Sequence record: PX915677.1
Strand: one strand, 5' to 3'
Source: a phage
DNA length: 64,000 bases
Under the pieces are notes generated by a model. That model saw only the letters and a list, made by a program, of their open reading frames with translations, made no database searches and had not been told where the DNA came from. A program made the translations under genes and the position numbers. Positions 23,234 to 63,952 of this stretch are shown in pieces; position 1 is the first letter of the stretch; the number at the start of each line of letters is the position of its first letter.

Positions 23234-26200
23234 ATGGCGCTGTATCCAATAAAGTCACTAGGTGCTGTAGGCGTTATCGCTGACCAAGCTCCGACAGACT
23301 TAGCTCCTAATGCTTTCACTAATGCTATAAATGCTCGATTTGTTGAGCAGAGAGTATTTAAGACGGGGGGCAATGCCCCTCTTTCTTATGTAGATGAAGA
23401 TAAGGATTTAACCCCTCTGTCTTTCGTTTCTATGCCTTTCGATTATTATAGCGCAGGTAATAGCTTTCTTGTTGTAGGTACTAATAAGAAGTTATATAAA
23501 CTGACAGATGAAAGCTTGACTGATATTAGCCGTAAGGTTGCTACAGTCACTAAGAAGGCTTCTGCCTCAATTAAGATTTATCCAGTTGTTTCTCAGATCG
23601 TTCCTAAAGAATCAACTATCTCAATGAACTTCAATCAGACCAAGAATCTAGAGGTTTCTCTTCTCCCTGCTGATGCTAACAATACCGATCTTATTTGGGA
23701 GGTTAGTAACTCATCCTATGGAAGTATTACGGTAGACCCTAGTGACTCTAAACTTGCTACTCTAACATCTTTTGAGAAAGAGGGTAATCTTGTAGTAACT
23801 ATCTCTACTGCCAATGAATCCGTAGTGGCTCAGATTGCTGTTAATATCATCGATGGTGATTCAGGCATCTTCTTGAGTCAAGATACTGTTACAATTCGTA
23901 AAGGAGGGACTACTACTCTCACGGCTGTTACTGGTAAAACTCCTGTAACTTGGTCCAGCAATAATGCTTCTATTGTATCCGTAACCCCTAACGCCAACTC
24001 TTTAACTGCTGTCATCACAGCGAACGGAGAAGGTAATGTAACAATCACTGCTGATAACGGGACTAAGACTGCTTCTTGTGAGATTGTTTCTATCCCTCAG
24101 ATTGATAGTATCTCTTTAAGCCAGTCAGATGTTACTGTGAGTAGAGGTTCTCAGTATATCTTAACTGCTACCCTTTCTCCTGCTAACGCCCCTAATCAAA
24201 ATATTACTTGGACCTCTTCTAACCCAAATATTGCAACAGTATCAGGGACTAGCACACAAGGGACGATCAACGCTCTGCTTGCTGGTTTTACTGAGATTAC
24301 AGCTACCACTGAAGAAGGTAACAGAGTTGCTGTCTGTACTGTACGTGTGGATTTAGCTGGAAGGACAATGAGAACAAGTGCTATGGCATTTGCCGCTCCT
24401 GTGTCAGAGTCAGTAGAAACTCAAGAGGAAGAAGTAGTAACTCCTCCTGAAAGTGAAGAGACGGTTTATTTTGCTGAGCCTACATCCGGTATTGATACGT
24501 CAGGGATGTATGAAGGTAACAACTTCTATGACTACTCTAACGTGAATGATATTGAAGGTTTTGCAAGAGCTTCTTTACTGGCAACCCCTTTGTCATCTGT
24601 AACCTTAGATATTGTCAGCGCTTCTCTTGATGTTGGTGAAGAGATTGTCATTACAGCCACAGCTTCTCCAGAAGGTGAGTACTCTTATCAGTGGTCTGTT
24701 GATAAAACTGGTTATGTTTCTACAACTTCAGTTACTGGTAAATCTATCAAACTGGTTGCTCTTCGTAAAGGAGAGATTAACGTAACATGTACTGTCAGTC
24801 AGATGACTCAGAAAGATTACGATGCTTTTGATGACTATCCTTGGTATCACGCTGTTATCTCTAACTGTGCAGTTGCTACAACTCACTATGAAACTCCTCA
24901 GGTAAAAGAATTCGAATCAGAATACTTTGTAGATCTTCCGGGATGGGGTGAGCAAACAGTTGTTGATAATGACGGAAACCCTTCAGTCAAGAAGTTTAAC
25001 TGGAAATGTGAGAGAGTAAGATCTTTTAACAACCGTCTTTTTGCTCTGAATATGAGAGAGGCTAATGCTTCTGGTGTTACCACTAACTACCCGCTTCGTC
25101 TTCGTTGGTCTAACTTTGCCAATGAGAACAAGGCTCCTACACTGTGGGATGACTTTGCCTATGATCGAGTTGTGTCTTCGGACTTAGCTTCTAACATCGT
25201 AGGGCAGACTCAGGCTCTAGAGAATGGGTATGCTGGTTACATTGACTTAGCAGATTCTAATGGTAGCTTGATTGATATCCTACCTCTTAAGGATTACTTG
25301 TTCGTTTATACAGAGTTTGAAACGTATATTGGTTCTCCGACTAATAACACGTACCAACCTCTAATGTTCAAGAAGCTCTTTAACGACTCTGGTATCCTTG
25401 CTCCCGAGTGTGTGGTTGAAGTAGAAGGTAGTCACTTCGTAGTTACTCAGAACGATGTAATCTTACACAACGGTGCAACTAAGAAGTCAATTGCATCTAA
25501 CCGTGTCAAGAACATGCTGATTAACGAGGTGTGTCTGGTTAATCCTTTAGCAACTCGAGTACACTTGCATCAGGATAAGAAAGAAGTTTGGGTTCTCTAT
25601 GTAGGACCGGGGGAGCCAAAAGAAAGCTTCGCTTGTACTAAAGCTGCTGTATGGAATTACGAGTTTGATACTTGGTCTTTCCGTACTATCCCATATGCTC
25701 AGTGTATTGGTCTGGTTGATCCTCCTGTTTTAGAAAGAGGTCCAATCTGGTCTGACTTCCAAGAAATCACTTGGGATGACCCATCTATTAAAGAACTCGT
25801 TTGGAGAAAGGATGCAACAAACTTTAGACAGAGGGTTACGATAGTAGGTTCATTCTTGAAGGGATTCTATCAGGTGGATGTAGGCGCTCTTGATTATTTC
25901 TATGACAGGCTAAATGATGTTGTTATAGAGAAGCCTCTGGAAATGAGGTTGGAGAGGACTGGTATAGATTTTGATAATGTGACGAATGAGTGGAATCAGA
26001 AGCATATTAATAGATTCCGACCTCAGACAACTGGTTCAGGTACTTACATATTTGAAGCTGGTGGTAGTCAATTCTCAAATGAATATGGACACCCACACAC
26101 ATCTAAGACATATACGATCGGTGTTGACAGGCATGTCTCGGTGAGACTGAACCATCCATACCTTTTCTATAATGTTATAGATAATGATGTTAACAGTAAT

Positions 26201-38442: not shown

Positions 38443-38955
38443 TTATTTTATCCAGTCTCTTTCTATATAGGAGGTTGTGAGCTTACGTCTCTCTGCTTCA
38501 GTGGAGAAGATGACTACTACACTTCCTTTAGTGTTACCACTAACACTTTGCTGTGTATCTGCTCTTGTGAAACTCACACGACCACCTGTTATGAAAACAA
38601 TCTCATCAGCATGGTTTATACACTTAGTAAACCACTTAACAGAAGTATCAGCTGGTAGCAATAAAACTGTACCAACTTTAAGTTTCTTGTTTTTGATTGC
38701 CAAGTCAACCCAAGGAGTTATGTCTGAATATGGAGGATTACACCAAGTGTAAGTGTTTCTGAACTCAGAGAAATCATAGGTTAGAGAATCCATTTCCTCT
38801 GTTATATATTTTTCTAGTAGATGATTCTTGTCACTAGATGCTATATCACAGGAGAATTCAAACCTTGTGTTAAAGAAATCAAACAGCCATTTAGGGGTTT
38901 GCCATAAATCTCTAATGTCTTCTGGGGTATTACTAGATCTATAATCTGTTACCAT
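38443..38955 (-). CDS. DNA N6-adenine methyltransferase, phage Dam type
   Basis: WQTPxxLF N-terminal motif, catalytic NPPY (WCNPPYSDI), conserved LLLPADTSVKWF block. Confidence 0.8.
   Translation of the reverse strand: MVTDYRSSNTPEDIRDLWQTPKWLFDFFNTRFEFSCDIASSDKNHLLEKYITEEMDSLTYDFSEFRNTYTWCNPPYSDITPWVDLAIKNKKLKVGTVLLLPADTSVKWFTKCINHADEIVFITGGRVSFTRADTQQSVSGNTKGSVVVIFSTEAERRKLTTSYIERDWIK

Positions 38956-40643: not shown

Positions 40644-40653
<10 letters not shown>
39754..40653 (-). CDS. P-loop kinase, dNMP-kinase-like, with N-terminal coiled-coil extension
   Basis: Walker A GPPGCGKDT; specificity not assignable from sequence alone. Confidence 0.55.
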
Positions 40654-42139
<1,486 letters not shown>

Positions 42140-42140
<1 letters not shown>

Positions 42141-47357: not shown

Positions 47358-49202
47358 TTAGTGTGTATGCATCCAGTTAAGTCCAATCTGACAATCAGAT
47401 GCCAGAGGACATTCCATATTCAGATACTCGCCAGCTTTCTTAACACAAAGCTCGGTGTGCTCTTTGAGTTTCTGTACATCATTACGGTTTACTGAGAATT
47501 GACCTTCATCGTGCATATCAATTACCTTAGCACAACGAACCTTATCTTTCTCAATCCACTTGTTAAGGAACATCATAGCATATTTCATAACAACAGCACC
47601 AGCACATTGCAGGAGTGTGTTAAGGGCTTTATGAACCATAACCTTACCAGTGGCATCCCGTCTCATTGTAATCTTACGACCATCAACTCCAATCAAGTAT
47701 CCTTGAGCAGCTTTCTCTGTCATACGATCAATGAGGATTGCAATACATGGGTTCTCTGCTAAGAAACGTGCTCGCATCACTGAACCTTCGTCAGCCCCAC
47801 CACCTACAATTGAACCAAGCTTAGCATCACCAGCACCATAGTTGAATGCGTAGATAAACGTCTTAGCGTTGTCACGAGTAGGAAGACCAGCAAGTTTCTG
47901 GTTGTGGGAGTGGATATCACCTTCAAGGAGAATATCACGATACATAATAGCAGAAGCTAAACCACGTTCTGCCAGAGCTTTCTTAGCTGGGTTGTTCTCT
48001 TCAATTGCCTCAGCAAGCATATCCCTACACTCTTTAATGAGGTAGTGAGCGAGCATACGAAGTTCAAGTCCAGAACCATCATACCCTAAGAATACTTCTT
48101 TACCAGCGGGTATGTAATATTTGTAAGCACCTATAGGTTTATCTTTCTTCCCCGGCTTACCTTTCTCGTAAATTACGTTAGTACCTTTTCGTATATAACA
48201 ACCATCAGGAACAACGTTAGTAATAACGAAAGGACGAGAGTGATCACTGTCTGAGTTATAGTCAGACTCAAACAAACTGCGACACTCGTGACCAAACAGA
48301 CCACGGGAGGGAATATTAACCACGATACGATGTTTGAATCGAAAAGTCGGCGTAGCGCAGCTGTTAGCTTCTGCCGAAAGTTTACCATCTTCGCGTTCCT
48401 TTGCTATGAGTCCACTGATAAGACCTAGCCTGTGAGCCGCTACAACGCGTCTCTTAAGCAAACTTCCGACACTCCCTAGCTCACCCCCTAACCCTTCTTC
48501 AAGAGTCTCCTCGAGGTTTGTAGGAGCTGTAGGCCACTTGTTTGATGTGGCTAGTGCTTTCTTAATCTCATCAAACGTTACAGGATTACGGCGATTAGGG
48601 TTCAACCCCAAACCAAATACGTAAGCCTTCATGTAATTCTTAGTCTTAAACCTGAAATGCTTTTCTAAGAACTTCTTAATATCAGCGTCAACCATCTCGG
48701 CTGTCTGCTTCTGCTTAGCATTGCCTCGCATCCAAGCAGTATACCATGCTTGGTATGTTCCATACTTTCTCATATCTTTCTTAATTTCGAAAGTATTCCA
48801 AGGCTTCTTAGATACGTTAAACTCTGGAGGAAGGAAGCCCTCATCCATAAGAGCTTCTTTAACTCGTGCATCTTTAGATGGGTCAAAGTCTACATATTCG
48901 ACACAGGTGAAAGCTCCACCAATATCTTCTCTCTTCAGCCCAACCCTATCACAATAGGCTTGAGGCCACTTCTGTAAAGCTCCAGACTTCTTAAACGGCT
49001 TCATATAAGTAGAGCCATCTAATCTCATCTTAGGTAAGAGAGGAATCAACTCTCTGTCAATATTAACAATAATCTCTTTAAGGAGGTGAACATACCACCG
49101 AGCATTTCTTCGGTTGAAACTCACTCCGTGCTTTGCTTGCTTAGAGATTATATCAGCGACAGTCATCTCTGTCAAAAATGGAAGAGCGTCCGGGTTGCTC
49201 AC
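47358..49202 (-). CDS. DNA polymerase, family A, polymerase domain only (614 aa)
   Basis: Motif A region LGYDGSGLELRMLAHY, motif B RDNAKTFIYAFNYGAG, motif C VIDMHDEGQF; no exonuclease motifs in this ORF. Confidence 0.85.
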   Translation of the reverse strand: MSNPDALPFLTEMTVADIISKQAKHGVSFNRRNARWYVHLLKEIIVNIDRELIPLLPKMRLDGSTYMKPFKKSGALQKWPQAYCDRVGLKREDIGGAFTCVEYVDFDPSKDARVKEALMDEGFLPPEFNVSKKPWNTFEIKKDMRKYGTYQAWYTAWMRGNAKQKQTAEMVDADIKKFLEKHFRFKTKNYMKAYVFGLGLNPNRRNPVTFDEIKKALATSNKWPTAPTNLEETLEEGLGGELGSVGSLLKRRVVAAHRLGLISGLIAKEREDGKLSAEANSCATPTFRFKHRIVVNIPSRGLFGHECRSLFESDYNSDSDHSRPFVITNVVPDGCYIRKGTNVIYEKGKPGKKDKPIGAYKYYIPAGKEVFLGYDGSGLELRMLAHYLIKECRDMLAEAIEENNPAKKALAERGLASAIMYRDILLEGDIHSHNQKLAGLPTRDNAKTFIYAFNYGAGDAKLGSIVGGGADEGSVMRARFLAENPCIAILIDRMTEKAAQGYLIGVDGRKITMRRDATGKVMVHKALNTLLQCAGAVVMKYAMMFLNKWIEKDKVRCAKVIDMHDEGQFSVNRNDVQKLKEHTELCVKKAGEYLNMECPLASDCQIGLNWMHTH

Positions 49203-51365: not shown

Positions 51366-51547
51366 TTACGCTCTCCAATTTCTTCGTAATGACACTCAGT
51401 AGTTAAGCAGTCTTTACAGATTGCTGTATAAACCCTGACGTTAGTAAATCGTTTGTTCTTCCCTTTGGTTGGAGAGCCTTTGGCAAGCTCTCTGATAACC
51501 TTGTTACTTAAGTGAAGGTTTGTTCCTTCACATTTAGAGCACTTCAT
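51362..51547 (-). CDS. Small zinc-ribbon protein
   Basis: CSKCEG ... CKDC pairs. Confidence 0.5.
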   Translation of the reverse strand: MKCSKCEGTNLHLSNKVIRELAKGSPTKGKNKRFTNVRVYTAICKDCLTTECHYEEIGERK

Positions 51548-51863
51548 GGTTCATATCTTTATGAATCCTGTAAACAGCTGTCGCCATACAAGCAACAGCC
51601 TCGTTGTGTGGGAGGTGCATCCCTGTAGAACCATCCCAATCTTTGAACTCATTGTCAAAGACTCCGGTAGGCTCTGGATATAGAGCTTGCAGCTCCACTA
51701 GATCATTAGCAACTTGTTGCCATTTATCATCAGACCAGATAGGGTCATCCAACCAGTAATACAAATAGGAATGGATGATCAATTGCCTTCTATGCCGATT
51801 TATTACTTCAGCGGGACTTATCTCACTTCCATTTGAAGTCCTAAATGTATTACTGTCAATCAT
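51534..51863 (-). CDS. Hypothetical protein with segment resembling NAD-dependent ligase domain Ia
   Basis: HSYLYYWLDDPIWSDDKWQQVANDLVEL compared by eye with LigA N-terminus [28 protein letters not shown]. Confidence 0.45.
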   Translation of the reverse strand: MIDSNTFRTSNGSEISPAEVINRHRRQLIIHSYLYYWLDDPIWSDDKWQQVANDLVELQALYPEPTGVFDNEFKDWDGSTGMHLPHNEAVACMATAVYRIHKDMNHEVL

Positions 51864-54298: not shown

Positions 54299-54862
54299 TT
54301 AGTAAGACACGTCACCACTTGAATGGGACATGTTGCTCTTGACGAAGTAGCAATACTTGCCAAGACCTTCATTAATTTCTTGAAGCATACTCTGATCGAC
54401 AGGGTAAGTGGCTAAATCGCCATCAAACTCATCCATCTTCTCAATAATACACATCAAGGTCATGCACATATCAGAGAGCATACCGTCCATGTCTAGATCA
54501 GCATTACCCTCTGAGAACCAAGCGTGGGATAGGTAGTTAGCTGCTGTAGCATCCACTTTAACACAGTGGTATCGCATACGTTCAGCAATACGATCTCCTA
54601 CTTGTCGTGCGTAATCTTCCAGCTCATCAAACATACCATGAACACCCTGAAATCCTGCACCAGAAACGTTCCAGTGGTAGTTCTTAGCTTTGATATGCAA
54701 GAGTTCCATGTTAGCTTGTAAGCAGCTCAGGATGTGTTCTAGGCTGTTTGCACTAATCATGCCTTGCATTGTTTCAAGGCGAGAGATTGAAAGCTCAGAC
54801 CGGTCTAACATACTATAACTGTCACGACCAATCTCAGGTAAATCAAAGACATTCTTATGCAT
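54299..54862 (-). CDS. Dps/ferritin-like protein (start moved to Met with GGAGAA RBS)
   Basis: NYHWNVSGAGFQGVHGMFDE matches Dps ferroxidase-site region (E. coli Dps AHWNMRGANFIAVHEMLDG, from memory). Confidence 0.55.
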   Translation of the reverse strand: MHKNVFDLPEIGRDSYSMLDRSELSISRLETMQGMISANSLEHILSCLQANMELLHIKAKNYHWNVSGAGFQGVHGMFDELEDYARQVGDRIAERMRYHCVKVDATAANYLSHAWFSEGNADLDMDGMLSDMCMTLMCIIEKMDEFDGDLATYPVDQSMLQEINEGLGKYCYFVKSNMSHSSGDVSY

Positions 54863-55184
54863 TTGGGTTTTCTCCATCAAGTTCAACTGAGTTAGCAACA
54901 TTACGTGCAATATTATCCATTACCTGCTGGGTAATTACGATGCAGTTCTGTGGGTCTACTGACTTAGAACGCCCCATTTCAGGGTCATACACCTTAACTC
55001 GCTTAGCAGTTGAACCTGTGACCTGAAGAACCTTCAACAGATATCCCTGATTACCAATAGACCAAGCAACAACATCACGATTCTTGATAAAGCGACCAAG
55101 CATATCACGATGATAAAACTGTTGCATCACCTTGGATTTTGTAATCTCTTCAGTGGGCGGGGCCACTTTACTCAAATCTAACAT
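54855..55184 (-). CDS. Hypothetical protein (109 aa)
   Basis: ORF track; AAATGTATA variant motif about 45 nt upstream. Confidence 0.5.
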   Translation of the reverse strand: MLDLSKVAPPTEEITKSKVMQQFYHRDMLGRFIKNRDVVAWSIGNQGYLLKVLQVTGSTAKRVKVYDPEMGRSKSVDPQNCIVITQQVMDNIARNVANSVELDGENPNA

Positions 55185-55256: not shown

Positions 55257-55466
55257 TCAGTAGTAAATTACTTTAGACATAAAAGAACCAGTGTTAGGGT
55301 CTTCATACCAGCGATGTATGTCAGCGCTTTTTACTATTGTGCCCAGAGTCTTCAACTGTTTCTTAGCAATACGAGCCTCTTTGCGAGTGTCAAACAATTT
55401 GATGTTATCTTTTCTCATGTGTTGCTCAAGATTCCAAACAACATGAATAGCCCACATCTTTTTCAT
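55257..55466 (-). CDS. Small protein, member 3 of tandem triplicated family
   Basis: Shared TRxxARxxKK core and C-terminal SKV(I/Y)Y. Confidence 0.55.
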   Translation of the reverse strand: MKKMWAIHVVWNLEQHMRKDNIKLFDTRKEARIAKKQLKTLGTIVKSADIHRWYEDPNTGSFMSKVIYY

Positions 55467-55675
55467 TAGTAATGTACCTTTCCGCTAATATAAACACGAC
55501 CAGAGGAATACTCTCTGGCCTTATGAATACTGATGCTCTTGATCATATCCATATTAAACATAGATTTTTTAAAATCTCGAGCTTGTTGGCGAGTGGGTAG
55601 TGCAGTCATAGTCATGCCACCTGATGCCCACTTAATCTTTGCTAACCAAAATTGTCTCATGGTGATTGGTCTCAT
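55466..55675 (-). CDS. Small protein, member 2 of tandem triplicated family
   Basis: Shared core, C-terminal GKVHY. Confidence 0.55.
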   Translation of the reverse strand: MRPITMRQFWLAKIKWASGGMTMTALPTRQQARDFKKSMFNMDMIKSISIHKAREYSSGRVYISGKVHY

Positions 55676-55872
55676 TAATAATAAACCTTACTGTTAACAC
55701 AAAAAGCACCTTCACTATTCACGATAGCTTTTCCTAGTGTAACCTTATTAAGTCTAAAAGTAGATTTGTATTGATTTTTGACCCTACGTGCGTGCTCTCG
55801 AGTCTTAACAAAATCTACAGCTACTAACTCTCCAGTCGTGTTGTCATGTACACGAACAATCCACTTTTTCAT
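55675..55872 (-). CDS. Small protein, member 1 of tandem triplicated family
   Basis: Shared core, C-terminal SKVYY; translationally coupled to dcd. Confidence 0.55.
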   Translation of the reverse strand: MKKWIVRVHDNTTGELVAVDFVKTREHARRVKNQYKSTFRLNKVTLGKAIVNSEGAFCVNSKVYY

Positions 55873-56406
55873 TTACACACCTTTAGATGCAACCACACCT
55901 TCAGAGTTATTATAACGACCCTTCACTGCGTAGGAATGTTCCCCTGCATGAGAGTGCTCAAACATAACCATTTGACCAACACGCATACCAGCACGAACTC
56001 GTAAGCTGTGGTGCTTGGTTACGTTATGGAATTCAAATGTCAGCTTACTGCTATTAAATCCTGCATCTGCCCAACCGGCGTGAAGGTGGTTCAAACCACA
56101 ACGAGCCATAGACGAACGCAAAACAAACAGGCTTGAGATGTTATCTGGAAGGTTAAACTCCTCCATAGAGTGAGCCAAGAAGAACTGACCCGGAGTGATA
56201 ACCAAACCCTCTTCAGGAATCTTTACTTCCTTCCACTGAAGATTCTCTTTCGCATCAATATCAACGATGCCATCAGCCTGTTCTTCAACAAGGATAGTAT
56301 CACCAATACGGATATCCACACTAGCAGCGTTAACATATTTATGCTCCGCATCCAGATAACCATTGTCAATTACATCGTGCAGTTCAATACTTCCTAGTAA
56401 ACCCAT
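55873..56406 (-). CDS. dcd: dCTP deaminase family protein
   Basis: NAASVDIRIG and GWADAGFNSSKLTFEFHN match Dcd-family motifs. Confidence 0.75.
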   Translation of the reverse strand: MGLLGSIELHDVIDNGYLDAEHKYVNAASVDIRIGDTILVEEQADGIVDIDAKENLQWKEVKIPEEGLVITPGQFFLAHSMEEFNLPDNISSLFVLRSSMARCGLNHLHAGWADAGFNSSKLTFEFHNVTKHHSLRVRAGMRVGQMVMFEHSHAGEHSYAVKGRYNNSEGVVASKGV

Positions 56407-56415
56407 TCTTATTCC

Positions 56416-57729
56416 TTAGTTATTTTCGTCTATTTCAAAAGAGATTCCACGACCCGCTTCATCGGCAAACCGAACTGTACGGGTTTGAGGCTGCAACACT
56501 TCAGGGTTGTTGGCAACAAATTGATCAGCGAGACTATCTCCCAAATCCTGTTCCATATCTTCATCAGTCCACACAGCCCTAACAGGTGCGTTGATATCAC
56601 CAACAGCGAAACCCTGACCAGAGAACTGACGTGCGCTAACAGTTAAGCCGTTTGGTCGACCACGAGAGGGTCTAGCCATCCATCGCTCCATAGAATCACT
56701 TGTAATACCAAGAGCTTCTTCAAAAGATGTTCTACGAGTAGGGCTTTCTCTTCGTGACTCTTGTGCTCGACGCATTGCAGGGGCTACAAACACCCCTTCA
56801 ATTGCATTGTGTCGGTTAGGTTCCTCTTCTCGACCAAGCAGATCACCACCCGTGTTAGTCGTTAAATTTGTCAACCCCTCAGACCAATACGCATGAATCT
56901 GACCAGAACCGTGAAGACTAGACATAATCTGAATCTCTTCATAAGGGATTCCAAAGAATCGACTCATGTCTCGGTTAACACAATATAGAGCACTTGTTGT
57001 ATCTTCAATAAGAGAAACCTGACCTAATCCATTGACTAGATGACTAACTGGCTGAGGTGTGGGAAGATATCGAGTTTGGGCCATGTATTGATGCGCAACT
57101 GCTGGAGAGGAAAATCTCAACACTTGTGAGTTAGGCCACTTCTTGTGAACATACCTGATTTCACGACTAGAAACAACCACTGGACAAGGGGAAGTCATAG
57201 CCAAATATCCGTGAGAAGTCATGAATAAGTTGTCAAGAGTCATCGCACCACGGCACATCATAGGAAAATTATCCAATACCTCTTCAATAGAAGTAGGATA
57301 ATTAAACATGAATTGGATACGAACCCCATTCCACTGAAACTCAATAATATCAGTGAATGTTAATTGAGAACCCCCAGCATAGGATTCGTTTGTAGCTTCA
57401 GCAAGAAGTGATGCATATTCAATATCTTGTGACTCTAGCCATTCCTTCACATTACTTTCAATCTCCCGTCCAAGCTCTTGCCAACGATCAGTTGGGATGA
57501 AAGTGTTTTGAGTTCTTGGTGTTTGTCCTCTGACAATAAAGATATCAATGTCATGTGGAGCTATGTTATTAAGGACAGCATCACGAACAGCCCCACCAGT
57601 AATGATGGGACAGATACCATCTGGAATCAAGTTGTTGTTAATCAACTGTTCAATGAAGTGACGACCAACAGTGATATCAGGTTGTTGAGCAACCTTATCT
57701 TCAATTTGGTTAATCGGGATAACAATCAT
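56416..57729 (-). CDS. Pol-beta superfamily nucleotidyltransferase with CCA-enzyme/poly(A)-polymerase-like head motif
   Basis: ITGGAVRDAVLNNIAPHDIDIF (GGxVRD ... DxD); remainder lacks recognisable CCA-enzyme neck/body motifs; Arg-rich C-terminal region; start moved to ATG 57729. Confidence 0.6.
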   Translation of the reverse strand: MIVIPINQIEDKVAQQPDITVGRHFIEQLINNNLIPDGICPIITGGAVRDAVLNNIAPHDIDIFIVRGQTPRTQNTFIPTDRWQELGREIESNVKEWLESQDIEYASLLAEATNESYAGGSQLTFTDIIEFQWNGVRIQFMFNYPTSIEEVLDNFPMMCRGAMTLDNLFMTSHGYLAMTSPCPVVVSSREIRYVHKKWPNSQVLRFSSPAVAHQYMAQTRYLPTPQPVSHLVNGLGQVSLIEDTTSALYCVNRDMSRFFGIPYEEIQIMSSLHGSGQIHAYWSEGLTNLTTNTGGDLLGREEEPNRHNAIEGVFVAPAMRRAQESRRESPTRRTSFEEALGITSDSMERWMARPSRGRPNGLTVSARQFSGQGFAVGDINAPVRAVWTDEDMEQDLGDSLADQFVANNPEVLQPQTRTVRFADEAGRGISFEIDENN

Positions 57730-57730
57730 T

Positions 57731-58288
57731 TTACATTTTCCAATATAATGAAGGTGGGTCGTAAGGGTCAAATCCCGTGAGTTCACACAAGAAAAGATAA
57801 ACCTTAACAGTCAAGTTAACGTCCTGTTCACAATAAGTAAACATATCTTCAGTGAAAGCATCCCATGCTTCCTCTTGCTCACCGTAGTCACCTTTAAGTT
57901 CCTCTAAGAACTCACCCCATTGCTTCAAGCCGTGACCTCTTGGGCCACGTCTAGGGTCGCCTTTCGGATACTCAGGACTGTCGCCAATACGGTCAGGTTT
58001 AAGATATCGACTAAGACATAAAGTGTCAAAGACGTTAAAATTATATTTAATCAAAGAGGGATACATCTTCTTCAGAGCAGGTAAGTCGAAGTCAATAATA
58101 TTATGACCCACTAGTACATCTGCTTCTGTCAGTTTACGAATCCCGTCTTCAATTTGGTGAGGCCGATAGCCCCACCTTTCACCAGTTTCAACATCGAAGA
58201 TATAAATACACCATACTTTAGTTATGTCATCGTACAGTGCATTACTCTCGATATCGAATGCAAACACTTTCTTCTTTTTCTTTACCAC
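57731..58288 (-). CDS. Stand-alone DEDD (DnaQ-like) 3-prime to 5-prime exonuclease
   Basis: Exo I FAFDIESN, Exo [12 protein letters not shown], Exo III YCEQDV. Confidence 0.8.
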
Positions 58289-60072
58289 GGTGAAGCTCCA
58301 TCTGCTTGGTTGACGAGAGAAGCTGCATCCTCTCCGTTAGTTAAAACGAATGGATTATCTTCATCAACTTCAAAGTCTTCCCTTTCTACAAGTCTACCGG
58401 TTTCGCTGATATACTTAGTATAACAGACACCTGTCTGACCGTAGTTACGTTCTTTCAGTAATCGAATGACTGAGAGGTTCTTAGCTAAGCCGTCAGCTTG
58501 CTTATCACGCTCAAAGCCAATGATACACTGACACCAACGCATAAGAGAACGAGAGCCAGTGAACTGTACTTCACGTACCTGTCCACCTTCTTCATGAGGA
58601 GCACCACCTGCCGGAGCATTAAGGTGAGATAACACGAAAGCGGTAAAGTCTAATTCTTTACACATACCAGCAAGCTCGGAAGCAATCTTACTGATTTCAG
58701 TGTTAATCTCTGAAGGTGTTAAATGAGATACCAGAGCGGTAATGTTATCAAGGATGATGAACTTACACTGGTTTTCAACTACCCAGAAACGGATACACTG
58801 TTTAATGTCTTCCCATTCATTCTGTCCGAAGTTGTCATACAAGAAGAATTTGTCTGCATAACGAAGTGCTTCATTACGCAAATCTTCCTCGTCATATTCA
58901 ACATCAGGTCGGTGGAAAGGAATTGATGCTGACTTACCAGCAATGTTCTTAACAGACATGCCTACCTTCTCTTCCAAGAAGAAGCCACCTCCATTAAAAC
59001 CATGCTCTAAGCACAGATGAGCAACCAGCTCGTGAGCAATGAGTGTTTTACCACTCCCTACTCCACCACCAATTGCTACCACCTCTCCCCATCGAATACC
59101 GAAGGTCATCTCATTCAGAGTCTTCCACGGATACGGGATACCCCACTCCGCTTTCTTCAGAGCATCATCAAGACAATCAAAGATTGTTACAGCACCAGCA
59201 GGAGATTCCCGCTTTGCTGAATACTTGAGAATGTTGAATAACTCTTGACCACGACCAGACAGAAGCATGTCATTCGCATCCTTAATCTCTTTCTCCACAC
59301 CGTTGTATGGGAAGGTTCCTTTAGGAATACGAGCAAACTTGACATGAGGGAATAAAGAACGACCTTTTGTTAAAGCTATCTCACCTGCATCATCGTTGTC
59401 CATGCAGAGCACAACCTCCTCAAAACCATTTACGAAGTCTCGGTTACGAGACAACACAGAAGAGATTGAACCTGCACCGAACGGTAAAGAAACACATGCT
59501 GGTTTAATGTTTGTTGCATTTGTAAAAGCTGTAAGGACATGGAAACCTGACATACAGGATAGCGGGTCTTCAAAAATGAAGAGCTTCTTGTTGTACACAT
59601 CTCCACGTTGAGCTTGTGCCATACCAAACAAATCTGCTTCTTTCACACTGCCGACGTAATAGAACTTCTTACTATCTAGCAGCTTAACCTCGTACCCGAC
59701 AATGTTTCCATCACGTTCACGAGGAAAGAAGTAACTGTCTGGTGTCTGACCATCAGTTTGACTCAGACCAATGCGACACTCAAACCGCTCTGATACAGCT
59801 TTAGGGATTAAACGGCGAGTGAGTTCACCCTGAGGAAGCTCTAAGCAATCATCTAAGACTTCTCTCAACTCTTCAGGGGATAACTCTTTCTTCTCGTTTG
59901 GAGTAGGTGTAGTGCCCTTTTCGAACACTTCGTAATTCCCACAACGGTTACAACTTCCCCACTCCTCACCAGTCTCTTCGTTACGGAAGAGAATCATGTG
60001 GTTGTGGGTTTTATCACGACCATGAGAGATACATTCCTTACAACCTGTGTCTCCCAAAATGATCTTTGACAT
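58282..60072 (-). CDS. Primase-helicase (T7 gp4-like)
   Basis: N-terminal Cys4 zinc finger, TOPRIM-like acidic motifs (EDPLS, DNDDAGE), DnaB-type Walker [10 protein letters not shown] and Walker B IILDNI. Confidence 0.85.
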
Positions 60073-63058: not shown

Positions 63059-63952
63059 TTAACCTCTATTCAATGAACATTTAGGAGAATTACAATAAAC
63101 TTGATTCATAGAACCAAGCGTACAACTTTCAGCATCGCGCCACGGAATCTGCTTAAAACACTCTGAGCAGTATCCGAGGGTTGACCACATGGCTTTGGTG
63201 AAGTCAGTGCTTCGGTTTCCGTCGAAGCTGACAACAGTTTTTCGGAGAGCTGTTCGTGATTCAGGAAACACACCTGCTTTCTCAGCAGGTTCCTCCTTTT
63301 TTGGCTTAGTTGAGATTGCAAAAATACTGTTGCTACGTTTCTCAACATAAGCATCAACAACATCCTCCAGAGTGATGCCTGTCTGTTTCGCTGATGAAGG
63401 TAATATAGTCATACGACCAATCATTTCTTCAGTTACACGTAAAGCAAACTCGGGACGACGGGCGTTTGTTGTATCTGTTGCTTTAATCCATACATAACCA
63501 TCTTTGATCGTAGCATTAGATACTTTCTTCTTTACTTCTACAGCGCAGACTTTACAGATATCTTCACCACGAAGACGACTAAGTTCATCATCGAACTCAT
63601 TCTCTGTTTTAACTTCACCACAGATTTCACAAACACCAATAGGAGTTTCCTCCTCTTCTTCCTCTTTAGGTTTAGTCAAACCTTCCAGACATTCAGGATG
63701 CCAATAGCACTGATATGCGAAGACTGCTTTAGGTGCATCCTTCCAATCAATGTGTTTGTCACAACCACCACAATCACCATGAGAGTGTGCTTCCCAGAAT
63801 TTACGAGTGATAGTAACGCCGTTCTTGTTGACGAAACTATCATTCATATCAAAAGGGATATCATCATCGAAGTCAGCAGTAGTTGACTCAGGCTCCTTTT
63901 TCTCCAGAGATGGGTCAACAAAACGACCTGCTGTGATCACTAAGCGAACCAT
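63059..63952 (-). CDS. Cys-rich protein with multiple CxxC pairs (297 aa)
   Basis: ORF track; several zinc-finger-like Cys pairs. Confidence 0.55.
   Translation of the reverse strand: MVRLVITAGRFVDPSLEKKEPESTTADFDDDIPFDMNDSFVNKNGVTITRKFWEAHSHGDCGGCDKHIDWKDAPKAVFAYQCYWHPECLEGLTKPKEEEEEETPIGVCEICGEVKTENEFDDELSRLRGEDICKVCAVEVKKKVSNATIKDGYVWIKATDTTNARRPEFALRVTEEMIGRMTILPSSAKQTGITLEDVVDAYVEKRSNSIFAISTKPKKEEPAEKAGVFPESRTALRKTVVSFDGNRSTDFTKAMWSTLGYCSECFKQIPWRDAESCTLGSMNQVYCNSPKCSLNRG

Follow-up and report, generated by a model that had tools for sequence, protein, structure and literature searches.

The 64,000-nucleotide stretch of phage DNA in sequence record PX915677.1, referred to here as the window, contains on its minus strand a gene for a nucleotidyltransferase of 437 amino acids. 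The gene has long been annotated in related phages, and specialists have flagged its product as an odd nucleotidyltransferase. It is described here as an enzyme other than a CCA-adding enzyme, grouped with stand-alone nucleotidyltransferases of the Gad2 and PHROG 1614 type, and as an accessory gene that joins a constant N-terminus to a hypervariable remainder. Judged from its conservation, the enzyme is real and probably active, with only the catalytic "head" of a CCA-adding enzyme. We tentatively favor a role in the conflict between phage and host for this putatively active, template-independent nucleotidyltransferase. The gene and the parts of its product are located in the window as follows:
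56416–57729, minus strand: nucleotidyltransferase coding sequence, 437 amino acids followed by TAA, from the open reading frame and its translation.
56860–57729, minus strand: folded part, residues 1–290, with two N-terminal helices, a Pol-beta/class II CCA-type head, a first neck-like helix, and a small helical subdomain.
57538–57597, minus strand: motif A, GGAVRD...HDIDIF, residues 45–64, with invariant residues including the catalytic carboxylates D60 and D62; the sole stretch that matches CCA-adding enzymes by sequence.
57349–57351, minus strand: D127, candidate third catalytic carboxylate, followed by the invariant I128; on strand 125–133 of the predicted structure.
57247–57267, minus strand: FPMMCRG, residues 155–161, at the place of CCA motif B; P156 is invariant and residue 155 is F or M.
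57133–57165, minus strand: helix R-[D/E]-x-x-Y-x-x-[K/R]-K-x-P, residues 189–199, at the place of CCA motif D; [D/E]190, Y193, and K197 are invariant, and the helix spans residues 188–197 in the predicted structure.
56419–56859, minus strand: C-terminal tail, residues 291–437, predicted to be disordered; Arg-rich and Lys-free, basic in residues 300–360 and acidic in residues 361–437.

The DNA of Escherichia phage KM01 is 99.5% identical, and that of ES17, SU10, and Bas90 is 97–98% identical (98% for Bas90); on these identities the window is assigned to a Kuravirus (Gordonclarkvirinae, phiEco32/SU10 group). The protein matches PHROG 12715 with an E-value of 1.7e-245. Its orthologues include phi32-73 of phiEco32, the equivalence being named in the annotation of NJ01, and CDS74 of SU10, the protein product of which has been picked up by mass spectrometry (PMC4281155). 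The Bas90 counterpart is labelled "nucleotidyltransferase" in its record.

A search of 1.84 billion representative proteins returned only 31 clusters of relatives, all from the same phage lineage; a profile search added only two marginal proteins of the PHROG 1614 type, and a scan of IMG/VR gave four loci. Conservation has been scored in an alignment of 25 core family sequences that are 24–40% identical to the window protein. Residues G45, G46, R49, D50, D60, D62, F64, Y117, I128, Q139, P156, Y193, and K197 are invariant in all 25, and positions 127 and 190 are occupied by Asp or Glu throughout. Because the active-site residues are invariant among such divergent relatives, the pattern is that of an active Pol-beta nucleotidyltransferase and goes beyond a chance occurrence of the motif. 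The sequence-only reading of the DNA had recognized a Pol-beta motif of the CCA/poly(A)-polymerase type; GGAVRD (residues 45–50, 57580–57597) and HDIDIF (residues 59–64, 57538–57555) bear it out, and the predicted fold agrees.

The structure of the protein has been predicted by AlphaFold2 from the family alignment. The fold of residues 1–290 is confident, with a predicted local distance difference test score (pLDDT) above 90 for most of residues 1–220. Residues from about 290 to 400 are predicted to be disordered, with pLDDT below 50 at residues 307–396, and a C-terminal hairpin is of low confidence. A Foldseek comparison with the PDB places class II CC-adding and CCA-adding enzymes at the top, although weakly (E 6.5e-5, TM-score 0.24–0.30, 11–15% identity). 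The features shared with class II CCA-adding enzymes and bacterial poly(A) polymerase I (PAP I; PDB 1miv, 3h37, 1ou5, 3aql) are the Pol-beta head with GGxVRD...DxD, a third acidic residue on the next strand, a helix ahead of the motif B position, and a first neck-like helix. The superposition is limited to 150–190 residues. In the model, the resemblance to CCA and PAP enzymes covers the head and the first part of the neck; the tRNA-binding body and tail are missing, and a predicted disordered tail of 150 residues is present.

In class II CCA-adding enzymes, the RRD of motif B recognizes the ribose 2'-OH, and the EDxxR of motif D serves as an amino-acid template for the choice of CTP and ATP. 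The neck, body, and tail domains bind the acceptor and T arms of the tRNA and give the enzyme a "seahorse" fold. RRD and ED..R occur in none of the 25 family sequences. The manual alignment to E. coli Cca, made by eye, suggests that the helix SIEEVL pairs with TLEDDL and that the FPMMCRG stretch corresponds to TLEDDLKRRDLTINALA, so that the motif B position reads D-N-F-P and RRD becomes N-F-P (x-[F/M]-P in the family). The helix R-[D/E]-x-x-Y may be the equivalent of motif D. The Pfam family PolyA_pol (PF01743) covers the head only and scores 18.8 bits, below the gathering cut-off of 23; the search of NCBIfam gave no family at E-values up to 10, phmmer found no match among PDB sequences, and the family profile matches PDB CCA enzymes across only 27 residues, at motif A. 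A canonical class II CCA-adding enzyme is therefore ruled out by the absence of motifs B and D, the body, and the tail, and by the missed curated thresholds; the full-length seahorse arrangement of neck, body, and tail is not found. The earlier remark that the neck and body motifs expected of a CCA enzyme are missing is thus confirmed.

The tail contains 17 Arg and no Lys and is net acidic overall: residues 300–360 have an isoelectric point of 11, and the last 77 residues one of 4.05. The sequence-only reading described the protein as ending in an Arg-rich region, which fits the Arg content and the basic segment but not the acidic terminus. Within the genus, residues 291–365 are 83–89% conserved, whereas tails from different genera cannot be aligned. 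Such conservation argues that the disordered segment of residues 291–365 is functional and under selection. Docking to the replisome through a C-terminal aromatic residue, as in T7, was considered and set aside as unsupported: W, F, or Y terminates about 10 of 42 representative tails, but the window protein ends in ...SFEIDENN.

The nucleotidyltransferase gene lies in a conserved replication block, next to replication genes as the sequence-only reading had stated. Its nearest neighbors and the head of the block are as follows:
58282–60072, minus strand: T7 gp4-like primase/helicase at the head of the block, from the open reading frame, the annotation of Bas90, and DnaB_C matches on syntenic homologues.
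57731–58288, minus strand: 3'-5' exonuclease subunit of DNA polymerase A, the upstream neighbor (Pfam DNA_pol_A_exo1, E 2e-8).
55873–56406, minus strand: dCTP deaminase, the downstream neighbor (Pfam DCD, E 3.7e-34).
The TAA of the exonuclease subunit is separated by one nucleotide from the ATG of the nucleotidyltransferase (TGG AAA ATG TAA A ATG), and an AAGGA Shine-Dalgarno sequence lies between the nucleotidyltransferase TAA and the dCTP deaminase ATG. The order amidoligase cluster, GGACT, primase/helicase, exonuclease subunit, nucleotidyltransferase, dCTP deaminase, thioredoxin, ThyX, and DNA polymerase A is kept even in metagenomic phages with nucleotidyltransferases that are 28–31% identical to that of the window.

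The nucleotidyltransferase diverges much further between related phages than the genes on its two sides, as seen from the identities of the window proteins to those of three phages:
KBNP1711: helicase 94.6%, exonuclease subunit 86%, dCTP deaminase 95.5%, nucleotidyltransferase 36%.
ECBP2: helicase 94%, exonuclease subunit 79%, dCTP deaminase 95%, nucleotidyltransferase 33%.
MN05, of the same genus: helicase 100%, exonuclease subunit 97%, dCTP deaminase 99%, nucleotidyltransferase 80%.
The contrast between conserved flanks and a divergent gene holds over about 98 Gordonclarkvirinae records. The ratio of non-synonymous to synonymous substitution rates (dN/dS) is 0.22–0.55 in the nucleotidyltransferase, highest in the tail, and 0–0.09 in the flanks. 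The synonymous rate is raised over that of the flanks as well (0.57 versus 0.09–0.24 in the comparison with MN05), which points to old alleles swapped as a cassette and not to simple acceleration. At the DNA level the match to other genera is lost at the stop codon and regained at 57538, where DIDIF ends. Because the homology breaks exactly at residue 65 and at the stop codon, residues 65–437 are the variable unit. Within it, one 45-nucleotide island at 57133–57177, which includes the R-[D/E]-x-x-Y...K-K-x-P helix, is similar to ECBP2. In 7-11 and GAP52, phages of the sister family Grimontviridae, the exonuclease subunit gene is followed directly by that of dCTP deaminase, although the block of helicase, exonuclease subunit, dCTP deaminase, and thioredoxin is kept. 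The gene is therefore an accessory insertion outside the core replisome, and its product is no obligate partner of dCTP deaminase.

In some relatives an HNH homing endonuclease gene is inserted after that of dCTP deaminase (locus L007, 4862–5371), and the neighborhood is mosaic in places. The dCTP deaminase allele of four E. coli phages (O18-011, 1-6af, Bas89, and SR02) is only 58% identical to the usual one.

ARAGORN finds no tRNA gene in the window, in agreement with the sequence-only reading. The 98% identical Bas90 has one, about 16 kb past the nucleotidyltransferase gene:
63871–63946 of the Bas90 record (23871–23946 of locus L002), minus strand: tRNA-Arg(TCT).
Its counterpart would lie beyond the last position of the window, and this explains the absence of a tRNA from the earlier reading. 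The Kuravirus-like phages tabulated in PMC9965538 carry one tRNA each. The Bas90 gene ends in ...GGGCGC-A-CCA, so its CCA is genome-encoded and a need for CCA addition to the phage tRNA is ruled out. The sequence-only reading had pictured a complete class II enzyme together with tRNA genes as the case of routine tRNA maintenance; what is found is an incomplete enzyme and, in Bas90, a single tRNA that encodes its own CCA.

One reading of the protein, albeit an improbable one, is nevertheless that of a pared-down enzyme for CCA addition or repair, by which host tRNAs and the phage tRNA-Arg would stay chargeable during infection. The leading matches among solved structures, the CCA flavor of motif A, and the annotation of the SU10 (PMC4281155) and NJ01 proteins as CCA-enzyme nucleotidyltransferase domains agree with it; however, the protein has no body or tail to hold the elbow of a tRNA, residues 290–400 are predicted to be disordered, neither RRD nor EDxxR occurs in the 25 family members, and the curated family models are missed. 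The presence of tRNA-Arg(TCT) in the genome (PMC9965538) also speaks for it, but that gene already ends in ACCA, and E. coli has its own Cca. Relatives that lack the nucleotidyltransferase gene have RNA-repair ligases instead, namely RnlB and RtcB in GAP52, a further point in its favor; yet 7-11 and GAP52 manage without the gene itself, and an identity of 33–36%, against 94–95% for the neighbors, is unexpected for an enzyme that acts on the invariant ends of host tRNAs. Nor should tRNA maintenance be read into the annotation "CCA-adding enzyme domain".

The ligase genes of GAP52 (locus L022), for an RnlB RNA ligase 2 and an RtcB-type "tRNA splicing ligase", lie near the same replication block. 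Proteus phage Privateer encodes RtcB together with four tRNAs (PMC7881722). Problems of RNA damage may perhaps be solved differently by different phage lineages.

The enzyme could instead add 3' tails to host or phage RNA in the manner of a poly(A) polymerase, for example to hasten the decay of host mRNA and so feed nucleotide salvage, with the Arg-rich tail binding RNA. RNA binding by PAP I requires a basic C-terminal region, and the Arg-rich, Lys-free tail, with its basic residues 300–360, could serve likewise; but the tail as a whole has a net acidic character and differs from genus to genus, and the protein has no match to the Pfam PolyA_pol RNA-binding domain or Arg-rich C-terminal domain. 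The gene lies among genes of nucleotide metabolism, including those for dCTP deaminase, ThyX, and a dNMP kinase, which counts in favor of this reading. The neck and body common to PAP and CCA enzymes are missing, however, and the hypervariability is hard to square with a general role in RNA tailing. We therefore regard RNA tailing as quite unlikely.

Synthesis of a nucleotide second messenger or decoy by a CD-NTase-like or OAS-like enzyme, or another interference with host signaling, is the least supported possibility and very improbable. CD-NTases rank clearly below CCA and PAP heads, and GGxVRD is of the CCA type, unlike the motif of CD-NTases. The CD-NTase C-terminal helical domain was not detected, PADLOC gave no match for the protein, and CD-NTase/cGAS-OAS proteins are neither the closest fold nor a family-model match. 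Taken together, the Pol-beta call, the CCA/PAP-type head, and the non-canonical remainder of the sequence-only reading stand, while the three functions that it listed (tRNA repair, RNA tailing, and signal synthesis) have gained no specific support.

The authors who described the BASEL phages report that Gordonclarkvirinae are unusually resistant to defense systems, including restriction, with no mechanism known, and suggest that the nucleotidyltransferase and dCTP deaminase generate a DNA modification behind the resistance to restriction (PMC11990801). In this reading the two enzymes would modify the DNA covalently, or the nucleotidyltransferase would work at the replisome on the 3' ends of DNA. 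Besides this published suggestion, several features are compatible with such a role: the translational coupling to the polymerase exonuclease subunit, the position directly before dCTP deaminase, the synteny kept in relatives down to 28–31% identity, and the related genes of PHROG 1614 that adjoin helicase and ligase genes in phiKMV-like phages. The window also contains many restriction sites (EcoRI 11, EcoRV 34, EcoKI 8, and EcoP1 98) despite the reported resistance (PMC11990801). However, 7-11 and GAP52 keep dCTP deaminase and the whole block without the nucleotidyltransferase, and dCTP deaminase with ThyX amounts to an ordinary dTTP supply in a genome of 42% GC. A core enzyme of replication or DNA modification would be expected to be as conserved as its neighbors, yet this one is 33–36% identical, and a Dam-family methyltransferase encoded in the window may explain part of the resistance. 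No DNA-modification pathway is known to use a CCA-type Pol-beta nucleotidyltransferase. A replication-linked or DNA-modifying function accordingly seems to us about as unlikely as RNA tailing.

The methyltransferase gene, at 38443–38955 on the minus strand, encodes a 170-residue Dam-family N6-adenine DNA methyltransferase (Pfam PF05869, E 1.8e-48) and is of interest because the BASEL paper (PMC11990801) describes restriction resistance without a known modification pathway. Avoidance of restriction sites as the cause of the resistance to restriction-modification gains no support for EcoRI, EcoRV, EcoKI, and EcoP1, the sites of which are not avoided in the window. Other sites are depleted: CCWGG is strongly avoided, with 2 sites where 72 are expected, BamHI, PstI, and KpnI have no sites, and GATC, GGCC, and GCGC occur at about half of expectation.

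The closest relatives of the protein outside its own family are found in phages. The window protein matches PHROG 1614 with an E-value of 1.6e-7. Among the predicted viral structures of BFVD, the top non-self matches are stand-alone nucleotidyltransferases of 170–290 residues, with target-normalized TM-scores of 0.35–0.58, from phiAS7, Providencia PS3, Vibrio VEN, Yersinia fHe-Yen3-01, Pseudomonas LKD16, and Dickeya Ninurta, which are Autographiviridae and other phages. ORF16 of LKD16, a member of PHROG 1614 (E 9.5e-40), has the helicase gene on one side and the ligase gene on the other. The window protein shares with the PHROG 1614 proteins LKD16 ORF16, Aeromonas phiAS7, and Yersinia fHe-Yen3-01 a head-only CCA/PAP-like nucleotidyltransferase encoded in a phage replication module, which in their case is of the T7 type, with the gene beside that of the helicase. 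By contrast, the PHROG 1614 proteins have no long tail, and beyond motif A the similarity is marginal (hhalign 44% for LKD16). By profile, head-only fold, and location in a replication module, the window protein belongs with the stand-alone phage nucleotidyltransferases of PHROGs 1614 and 12715.

PHROG 1614 is also matched by Gad2, an anti-Gabija protein of 400 residues from Bacillus phage SPbetaL7 that is a predicted nucleotidyltransferase (bioRxiv 10.1101/2023.05.01.538930). Its sequence has been taken from OQ921347 (109563–110765), and the Gad2 family has been gathered for alignment. Precomputed weak matches to Pfam PF26128 (Gad2) exist for many close homologues of the window protein, for example P0002, which is 92% identical. 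Comparison of the family core with the Gad2 alignment by hhalign gives a probability of 73.5% and an E-value of 3e-5 over 112 columns, which span the N-terminal helix, GGA...DxD, the Q-containing strand, and the segment up to F[P/D]xxxCxG, and pairs the FPMMCRG stretch with FDFTVCMG of Gad2. The same core compared with E. coli Cca gives 16% over 23 columns. In the AlphaFold2 structure of a Gad2 homologue, the head elements follow in the same order as in the window protein and are succeeded by a beta-rich C-terminal domain. Both proteins are thus phage-encoded and stand-alone, are about 400 residues long, begin with two N-terminal helices, and share GGA...DxD[IF][FY], the Q-containing strand, and F[D/P]xxxCxG. 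The alignment of the window protein with Gad2 does not extend past the head, and the full Gad2 architecture is not found. Unlike the gene in the window, that of Gad2 belongs to a locus of temperate Bacillus phages devoted to countering Gabija. Gad2 appears to be a remote relative, to which no family assignment is tied. Other small Pol-beta nucleotidyltransferases also take part in conflict systems: MenT and AbiEii toxins and MNT antitoxins, some of which are reported to act on tRNA 3' ends (PMC10435456, PMC11541572). A literature search found no characterized function for phi32-73 or the PHROG 1614 proteins and no mechanism for Gad2.

A gene that is accessory and hypervariable inside a conserved block, and that has stand-alone phage kin, shifts the weight towards conflict between phage and host. 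This role is favored because the active site is invariant, the remainder evolves fast and is exchangeable, the gene is accessory, and its kin include, remotely, Gad2, a proven anti-defense protein; the reported resistance of Gordonclarkvirinae to defense systems (PMC11990801) points the same way. The enzyme would be catalytically competent and template-independent, retaining the class II CCA/PAP head and the first neck helix, and would have lost, or never had, the tRNA-binding body and tail and the sugar-reading and base-reading motifs RRD and EDxxR. It would belong to a phage-only assemblage of stand-alone head nucleotidyltransferases, in which it has a PHROG of its own, 12715, with PHROG 1614 and Gad2 as the nearest groups, and its role in conflict would resemble that of Gad2 against Gabija. 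It may transfer nucleotides to the 3'-OH of a nucleic acid, or to another acceptor, with the hypervariable residues 65–437, including the disordered tail conserved within the genus, setting the target or partner.

A more specific and more doubtful proposal is that Gordonclarkvirinae encode a diversifying counter-defense enzyme at the site flanked by the genes for the exonuclease subunit and dCTP deaminase. Its constant catalytic part, residues 1–64, would be joined to an exchangeable specificity module, residues 65–437, including the selected disordered tail, and it would nucleotidylate a component of host immunity or the nucleic acid that triggers it.

Several observations weigh against a role in conflict. 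The likeness to Gad2 specifies little about mechanism, and the link itself is weak, with HMM-to-sequence (HMMER) scores of 15–21 bits. Gad2 has GGAITS without the Arg-Asp of GGAVRD, and its beta-rich C-terminal domain (residues 250–385) differs from the helical subdomain and disordered tail of the window protein. The gene lies in a module of replication and nucleotide metabolism and in no recognized anti-defense island, and Gabija has no mention in the BASEL paper (PMC11990801). All 98 Gordonclarkvirinae records returned by tblastn contain the nucleotidyltransferase. Weak constraint or mosaic recombination could account for the hypervariability; a few phages also have the 58% identical dCTP deaminase allele.

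Kuravirus-like phages are frequent isolates for phage therapy, and the nucleotidyltransferase is one of the few enzymes of their genomes to which no role has been assigned; its locus has been singled out (PMC11990801). If the protein is a counter-defense enzyme related to Gad2, it would offer a handle on an anti-defense nucleotidyltransferase that acts enzymatically, not stoichiometrically. A diversifying counter-defense enzyme would help to account for the broad resistance of these phages to defense systems and would provide a model for the mechanism of Gad2 that is tractable in E. coli, since Bas90 and its relatives can be plated on K-12 derivatives whose O16 O-antigen has been restored. Should it instead be a minimal enzyme that modifies the ends of RNA or tRNA, it would show how little of the CCA/PAP scaffold suffices for activity.

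Three further genes on the minus strand of the window look like an NAD/ADP-ribose-centered counter-defense toolkit. They encode a Macro domain (41700–42140, E 2.8e-9), a SLOG protein of the YAcAr/YspA type (40644–41036, just below the Pfam cut-off), and a stand-alone NAD-binding Nlig-Ia domain of DNA ligase (51534–51863, E 2.1e-35).

DNA polymerase A of the window is split into the 185-residue exonuclease subunit (57731–58288, minus strand) and a 614-residue polymerase (47358–49202, minus strand), which are encoded about 8.5 kb apart, and this arrangement is kept throughout the lineage. Directly downstream of the dCTP deaminase gene, three abutting open reading frames on the minus strand (55257–55466, 55466–55675, and 55675–55872) encode proteins of 65–69 residues. 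The three resemble tandem paralogues, with a common T-R-x-x-A-R and a C-terminal ...SKV[I/H/Y]Y(Y). A ferritin/Dps-like protein (54299–54910, minus strand; Pfam Ferritin, E 2.9e-7), annotated as "DNA binding protein" in relatives, is encoded in the same block in distant phages.

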